From: Escherichia phage Pu-Krd-SF3
Direction: 5' to 3' (one strand)
Length of the DNA: 64,000 nt
Sequence record: PQ249397
Positions 14,664 through 15,049 of the stretch are shown here, in pieces. The notes below the pieces were generated by a model, which worked only from the letters and a program-made list of their open reading frames with translations, searched no databases and was not told the origin of the DNA. Both the position numbers and the translations under genes were made by a program. Within the stretch, counting starts at the first letter, position 1; the number at the start of each line of letters is the position of its first letter.

Positions 14664-15049
14664 ATGGAACTTATTACAGAATTATTTGACGGCGCTTCGG
14701 CGCCGGTTGTTAACTTAAATCCTAAGCATAAAATACCTCAAATTTTTGCTATTCAAGCCGGTGAAGAAAGTGTGCTTCCTGGATTTAGATTTTGTACATA
14801 CACCTCTGGCGGTGATACGAATAAAACGTTAAGCCGGGCGATAAAATGATGCATATCGTAATGATAGGTGTTAATGAGAAACTATCATTAGTTAAGCTTA
14901 AAAACTTGGGTGGAAATCCAATTGGTGTCATTAATGCTGTTTTTGATACTGCTCTTCAAACAATGAAACAGTATAAAATCGACGCATGCCTATTACGCGT
15001 ACTAAAAAGTTCAAAATGTAGTTTACAAGTCCCTCATGTTGTGTTATAG
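14664..15049 (+). pseudogene. Decayed partial duplicate of the alt 5' end, split by a frameshift into 61-aa and 67-aa ORFs
   Basis: 14664-14849 product aligns to Alt residues 2-62, 14846-15049 product to Alt residues about 64-128; frames differ. Confidence 0.65.

Follow-up and report, generated by a model that had tools for sequence, protein, structure and literature searches.

The alt locus and its two short ORFs

The window, by which we mean the whole stretch of 64,000 nucleotides from Escherichia phage Pu-Krd-SF3 (sequence record PQ249397), comes from a T4-type Tequatrovirus, and its gene order is exactly that of T4. Along the locus described here, the DNA ligase gene (gp30) comes first, then alt.1, alt, the two short ORFs and alt.-3; gp54, gp48 and gp29 come next, on the opposite strand (Table 1). 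Positions 14500–15400 match Escherichia phage Pu-Krd-SF4 base for base (100%) and T4 at 97.6% nucleotide identity. Over 12300–15450, which includes alt, the nucleotide identity with T4T is 96.8%, and the matching T4T gene is annotated alt. The product of the resident alt is the counterpart of T4 Alt, a head-packaged and injected mono-ADP-ribosyltransferase; T4 Alt is an internal head protein that enters the cell with the DNA (PMC2988021). The gene opens with ATGATG. The mechanical ORF begins at the first of these codons (12609, 683 aa) and the T4 annotation uses the second (12612, 682 aa); the paralogue and the remnant discussed below both align to the second ATG.

Table 1. Features of the alt locus (window coordinates)
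Feature	Position	Strand	Basis
Resident alt, T4-type allele	12609/12612..14660	+	ORF; Pfam PF03496 ADPrib_exo_Tox at residues 375–615, E 1e-33
alt2 remnant, first 116 codons (347 nt, one base short)	14664..15010	+	96–98% identity to intact-gene positions 1–348
alt.-1, 61 aa; alt2 codons 1–54, then out-of-frame tail	14664..14849	+	ORF list, T4 annotation, PHROG 802
Frameshift site, A4 run	14823..14826	+	A5 in 6/6 intact alleles and in the N2, SG1 and FL12 remnants
alt.-2, 67 aa; starts at ancestral internal Met-Met (codons 62–63)	14846..15049	+	ORF list, alignment, PHROG 802
Deletion junction, single copy of 9-bp CTAAAAAGT	15002..15010	+	Alignments
Last codons and original TAG stop (15019–15021) of ancestral alt2	15011..15021	+	Aligns with ime09/T2 positions 6548–6558
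Promoter-like site serving alt.-3: TTTACA, 17-nt spacer, TG, TATAGT	15022..15050	+	Best-scoring site in 12300–15500, 10/12 matches
alt.-3 (96 aa, DUF5498), intact neighbour outside the pseudogene	15082..15372	+	Pfam PF17602, E 1e-64; annotation

Downstream of the two short ORFs, alt.-3 is intact. C-terminal extension mutations in alt.-3 let T4 escape the CmdTAC defence system (PMC11618068). A GC-rich hairpin with a 9-bp stem (GGGGACC/GGTCCCC) lies at 15377–15398, between the convergent alt.-3 and gene 54; it shows up on either strand, and the e11/2 annotation gives it as a terminator.

The two short ORFs are the alt.-1 and alt.-2 of the T4 annotation. The earlier note had placed ORFs of 61 and 67 residues directly after alt and in different frames, and this is confirmed. 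The start of alt.-2 overlaps the stop of alt.-1 (ATGA). The out-of-frame tail of alt.-1 contains TLSRAIK, a peptide unique to Alt.-1; the corresponding peptide unique to Alt.-2 is SSKCSLQVPHVVL. The last 12 codons of alt.-2 (SKCSLQVPHVVL) run out of frame across what was the 3′ end of the ancestral gene, then across its stop codon and into the promoter of alt.-3.

Both ORFs resemble the N-terminus of Alt. A nucleotide alignment of the region with the 5′ end of alt (blastn) gives 68–69% identity over ~340 nt (E 1e-24 to 1e-28), far beyond chance. At the protein level (blastp), residues 1–56 of alt.-1 match Alt 2–58 (61%, E 6e-23) and residues 1–55 of alt.-2 match Alt 64–118 (62%, E 1e-21). Both also fall on PHROG 802, ‘Alt-like RNA polymerase ADP-ribosyltransferase’, alt.-1 at profile positions 2–59 (E 8e-19) and alt.-2 at 64–120 (E 9e-20). 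The homology claimed in the earlier note is therefore real, although its extent was put at the first ~130 residues of Alt; it spans ~118 residues, and the last 12 residues of alt.-2 have no Alt counterpart. The note had also described an internal deletion. There is none inside the homologous stretch, which holds only a one-codon gap relative to Alt, also present in the intact paralogues, and a single-base frameshift; the large deletion comes where the similarity ends on the 3′ side. A Pfam search with the merged 128-aa remnant found no domain, whereas the resident Alt and the intact Alt2 described below both match PF03496.

In the T4 internal proteins with a capsid-targeting sequence (CTS), a short N-terminal targeting peptide ends at a prohead-protease site with the consensus L/I-x-Glu. 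The remnant begins MELITE, and I-T-E, a candidate for such a site, occupies residues 4–6 in Alt, Alt2 and the remnant on a plain reading of the sequences.

The intact second paralogue and the deletion junction

When the frame of the remnant was corrected, tblastn gave one-piece matches of ~95% in many relatives, each lying in a long gene whose annotation reads ‘Alt-like RNA polymerase ADP-ribosyltransferase’. An intact gene of 685 codons, here called alt2, is located between alt and alt.-3 in ime09, T2, T6, RB10, KRT47 and S2_01 (n = 6), so that the intact second alt-like gene which the earlier note had raised for this position does exist in relatives. The intact alt2 carries PF03496, a catalytic domain with R / S-T-S / E-x-E motifs, at residues 416–620, and YRGQ, FVSTSL and EAEVILPRG, picked out by eye, are putative ART motifs. 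Against these 685 codons, the remnant has no uninterrupted frame of ~680–700 codons but two ORFs in different frames.

The alignment of the window with the intact alleles falls into two segments. The first is the remnant of the 5′ end; the second, from 15002 onward, corresponds to the last 20 nt of intact alt2 and then to its downstream intergenic region. Five of the six intact alleles have two copies of the 9-bp sequence CTAAAAAGT, at a distance of exactly 1,699 bp. As the two matching segments overlap at this sequence, and as it is doubled in those five alleles, the body of a full-length paralogue has been deleted between direct repeats. As 1,699 is not divisible by three, the reading frame is lost at the junction. 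The deletion took away the variable middle of the gene together with the whole ADP-ribosyltransferase domain. The exception among the six is the Shigella phage S2_01, whose intact alt2 (2501–4558 of its stretch) lacks the 5′ copy of CTAAAAAGT and is therefore not predisposed to the T4-type deletion.

We regard 14664–15049 as a pseudogene and, almost certainly, as what is left of a second alt-family ADP-ribosyltransferase gene, long since diverged, that lay in tandem after alt. The out-of-frame deletion between the CTAAAAAGT repeats fused codon 116 with the few codons at the end of alt2; the mechanism we propose for it is replication slippage or microhomology-mediated illegitimate recombination. 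In the lineage of the window and T4, a −1 slip in the A5 run then split the leftover 128-codon frame into alt.-1 and alt.-2.

A different origin was given in the title of the earlier note and in the annotation of AF158101, namely a partial tandem duplication in which the first ~400 bp of the resident alt was copied, then diverged and gained a stop. The remnant is indeed homologous to the 5′ end of alt and directly adjoins it. However, its identity to the resident alt is ~68%, against 96–98% to the 5′ end of the full-length, diverged second gene found in most relatives. Moreover, the sequence to the right of the junction is the second gene's own 3′ end with its stop codon, and a full-length tandem pair is also found in Dhakavirus Bp7. 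The description as a partial duplicate of the alt 5′ region has to be given up, and we consider such an origin extremely unlikely.

The T6 record calls the intact gene an ‘apparent insertion in alt.-2’. The order of events that this suggests, with the remnant arrangement ancestral and the 685-codon gene arising by insertion, is opposed by the intact tandem pair of Bp7 and by the out-of-frame junction.

The intact gene and the remnant were also compared by their frequency. Among 501 phage records matching 14500–15400, 90 are contiguous across the region (remnant type), and the remaining records are split at the junction, as expected with the 1.7-kb body present. Six records whose match stops at the T4 junction were inspected, and all six have the intact gene. 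T4 and its closest kin thus represent the minority state at the locus. The records of Staphylococcus phage SAJK-IND (MG010123.1) and Pseudomonas phage vB_PSGBLB0006 (PV654520.1) contain T4-like sequence of the locus, which suggests contamination or mislabelling of these two entries.

Later lesions and expression

The decay of the remnant was followed by comparing 17 remnant-type sequences, including the window, with the six intact alleles. The deletion junction is identical in 17 of 17, and the secondary lesions vary. N2 has no further lesion and retains one 128-codon ORF (1/17). The A-run frameshift is the only further lesion in six (window, T4, T4T, HMD-9, Lv5cm and e11/2), and a GAA-to-TAA nonsense mutation at codon 6 is the only one in two (SG1 and FL12). 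The remaining eight (SP21535, PD112, F1, ESh36, BYEP01, 235Ecol030PP, ACG-C40 and pSe_SNUABM_01) carry both frameshift and nonsense mutation; three of these eight have additional indels, a −1 in a T5 run (PD112 and 235Ecol030PP) and a 9-bp deletion (F1). The six intact alleles all have GAA at codon 6 together with the A5 run. With a common junction and differing later lesions, the deletion must have come first, and independent disabling mutations have followed since. Neither small ORF is maintained across lineages. Complete loss of the remnant by further deletion was not seen in any phage of the sample.

The loss of one A creates the stop of alt.-1 and leaves the ancestral Met62-Met63 as the start of alt.-2. 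The earlier note had allowed that a single-base sequencing error might conceal one long ORF. Only one base of an A run is affected, as would be the case with a homopolymer error in sequencing or assembly, but A4 recurs in 14 of the 17 genomes, which were sequenced independently, and the T4 reference is one of the 14. With the base put back, the frame reaches no more than 128 codons, as the 1,699-bp deletion is still in place, and N2 shows this state naturally. The possibility that one long gene is really there is excluded for practical purposes. Programmed frameshifting was considered as a further candidate and was rejected; other lineages have the codon-6 nonsense mutation or no shift at all.

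All four combinations of the two commonest lesions occur among the remnants, which indicates recombination or recurrent slippage. The tabulated haplotypes show recombination with intact alleles, which would confound a formal dN/dS test of the remnant, and the 347-nt segment holds too few substitutions for one. Some 11 of the 12 point differences between the remnant and ime09 are silent in the ancestral frame, as counted by eye on the alignment. These mostly synonymous differences probably reflect inherited polymorphism or recombination with intact alleles, and by themselves they do not show relaxed constraint.

The native alt2 ribosome-binding site, AAGGA at 14653–14657, still precedes alt.-1. 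The promoter-like site that serves alt.-3 lies within the tail of the alt.-2 ORF and is conserved downstream of intact alt2. In the time-resolved transcriptome and proteome of T4, the transcripts of alt.-1 and alt.-2 are classed as ‘middle’, while the Alt.-1 and Alt.-2 proteins have class NA and were not detected in a study that covered ~85% of the proteome; for alt.-3, transcript and protein were both detected and both are early (PMC9697503 Table S2). A transcript with no detected protein fits a transcribed pseudogene, with the proviso that small proteins are easily missed by LC-MS. The stretch would still be transcribed as read-through from alt. The start of alt.-1 with its good Shine-Dalgarno sequence is kept and alt.-2 overlaps it at ATGA, so that some translation is possible. 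No function would be maintained, and the sequence would be drifting.

The same features could be read as signs that alt.-1, alt.-2 or both are functional small proteins, for example prohead-targeted Alt-like peptides or modulators of the packaging or processing of Alt. The native ribosome-binding site, the ATGA overlap, the transcription of the region in T4 and the persistence of the remnant in ~90 database records are in keeping with such a role. Yet the codon-6 nonsense mutation destroys alt.-1 in 10 of the 17 remnants, a further frameshift truncates alt.-2 in two of the 17, neither protein is detected in T4, and the tail of alt.-2 is an out-of-frame reading of a promoter region. We therefore judge functional small proteins to be very unlikely. 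The view of the earlier note that the two ORFs are a decaying tandem duplicate rather than two real genes holds, given an intact syntenic orthologue, lesions that arose independently by lineage and the missing proteins in T4.

It is improbable, though worth stating, that the loss of Alt2 in the T4 lineage (~90 of ~500 records) was adaptive rather than neutral, for example as an escape from a host defence that senses Alt2 or is triggered by it, or that an N-terminal peptide is still made. In the latter case a prohead-targeted peptide of 61 aa here, and of 128 aa in N2, may influence the loading of Alt.

Earlier descriptions, exchange among alt genes and related systems

The degenerate second copy is already known, and its identification here is a rediscovery, with the lesions now placed exactly. 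The alt genes of T2, T4 and T6 were reportedly compared by Koch and Rüger in 1994. Record AF158101 carries a note describing alt.-1 plus alt.-2 as an apparent duplication of the first part of alt, with a stop codon. The wording of the earlier note on the window is that of this older and less accurate annotation. In HM137666 (T4T), the record refers to a deletion and a further frame shift in the second copy of alt. Nolan et al. (2006) listed T4 alt.-1 and alt.-2 as paralogous duplications of alt and reported a full-length duplicate in phage 44RR (PMC1524935). With the T4 reference annotation and the 2006 comparative paper already describing the degenerate second copy, the result carries little weight as a discovery. 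No functional study of Alt2 came up when the literature was searched for a characterised ‘Alt-like paralog’ in Tequatrovirus; the one paper retrieved was an unrelated genome report.

The practical consequences concern annotation and the use of T4 as a model. Many records count both ORFs as hypothetical proteins and some label them ADP-ribosyltransferases; alt.-1 and alt.-2 should be treated together as one pseudogene and not as ‘hypothetical proteins’. The HMD-9 annotation calls both remnants ADP-ribosyltransferases, and alt.-3 stands there as ‘tail length tape-measure protein’. Most phages closely related to T4 have Alt2, an injected effector that is missing from the model phage itself; this should be borne in mind when results on Alt or on interactions with phage defence are extrapolated from T4 to T2 or T6.

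Alt1 and Alt2 are 53–75% identical over the first ~240 residues, share almost nothing in the middle and are 20–45% identical in the catalytic part. The Alt of the window and Alt1 of ime09 are ~100% identical over the first 240 residues, 11–35% in the middle and 31–90% across the C-terminal half. At the nucleotide level, blastn aligns nothing of 13427–13838, in the middle of alt, with alt1 of either ime09 or T2. Protein identity there is 11–35%, and the flanks are 94% and 80% identical in nucleotides. The segment is an allelic replacement within alt itself.

Two phages extend this picture. ECML-134 has a single alt gene (3501–5561 of its stretch) in which the N-terminus of Alt1 is fused to the effector body of Alt2. 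Between nt 453 and 475 of this gene, the informative sites pass from alt1-type to alt2-type in one clean step. The pattern is that of an in-frame unequal homologous crossover in the shared N-terminal segment, and the chimera constitutes a third state of the locus. Dhakavirus Bp7, outside Tequatrovirus, has a tandem pair of alt (2413–4497) and alt′ (4498–6552). Its alt is 34–50% identical to ime09 Alt1 at the N-terminus and 88–98% identical in the catalytic region, which suggests that the C-terminal effector part has been exchanged across genera. The earlier note had proposed past exchange of effector cassettes at this position. For the remnant this does not apply, as it was made by deletion; for the locus at large the proposal is borne out by the ECML-134 chimera and the alt of Bp7.

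The T-even internal proteins (IP) are diverse effectors that share only a capsid-targeting sequence (PMC3012670). In a more speculative reading, suggested by the chimera of ECML-134 and by the likeness of the Bp7 catalytic region across genera, the conserved N-terminal segment of Alt may be a packaging module and at the same time a substrate for recombination through which effector bodies are swapped.

The closest known system is T4 itself, whose alt.-1 and alt.-2 (AF158101, HM137666; UniProt P39495, P39494) are the same two ORFs at the same locus. Over 14664–15081 the window is 97.6–98.1% identical to the T4 records at the nucleotide level, with few point differences. The intact alt2 of T2, T6, ime09, RB10 and KRT47 (annotated ‘alt.-2’ or ‘Alt-like RNA polymerase ADP-ribosyltransferase’, 685 aa) shares with the remnant its position, the ribosome-binding site, the downstream promoter and alt.-3, but it keeps codons 117–685 with the PF03496 ART domain, which the remnant in the window lacks. 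In ECML-134 the tandem pair has likewise been reduced to one functional gene; there the outcome is a productive fusion, whereas in the window it is a dead remnant. The IP proteins and the Alt family are alike in combining a conserved N-terminal part with variable effector bodies. The shared segment is ~150–240 aa in Alt, where it is a putative packaging determinant, as compared with ~10 aa in the capsid-targeting internal proteins. Unlike modularity of the IP type, the remnant in the window arose by deletion and not by exchange.
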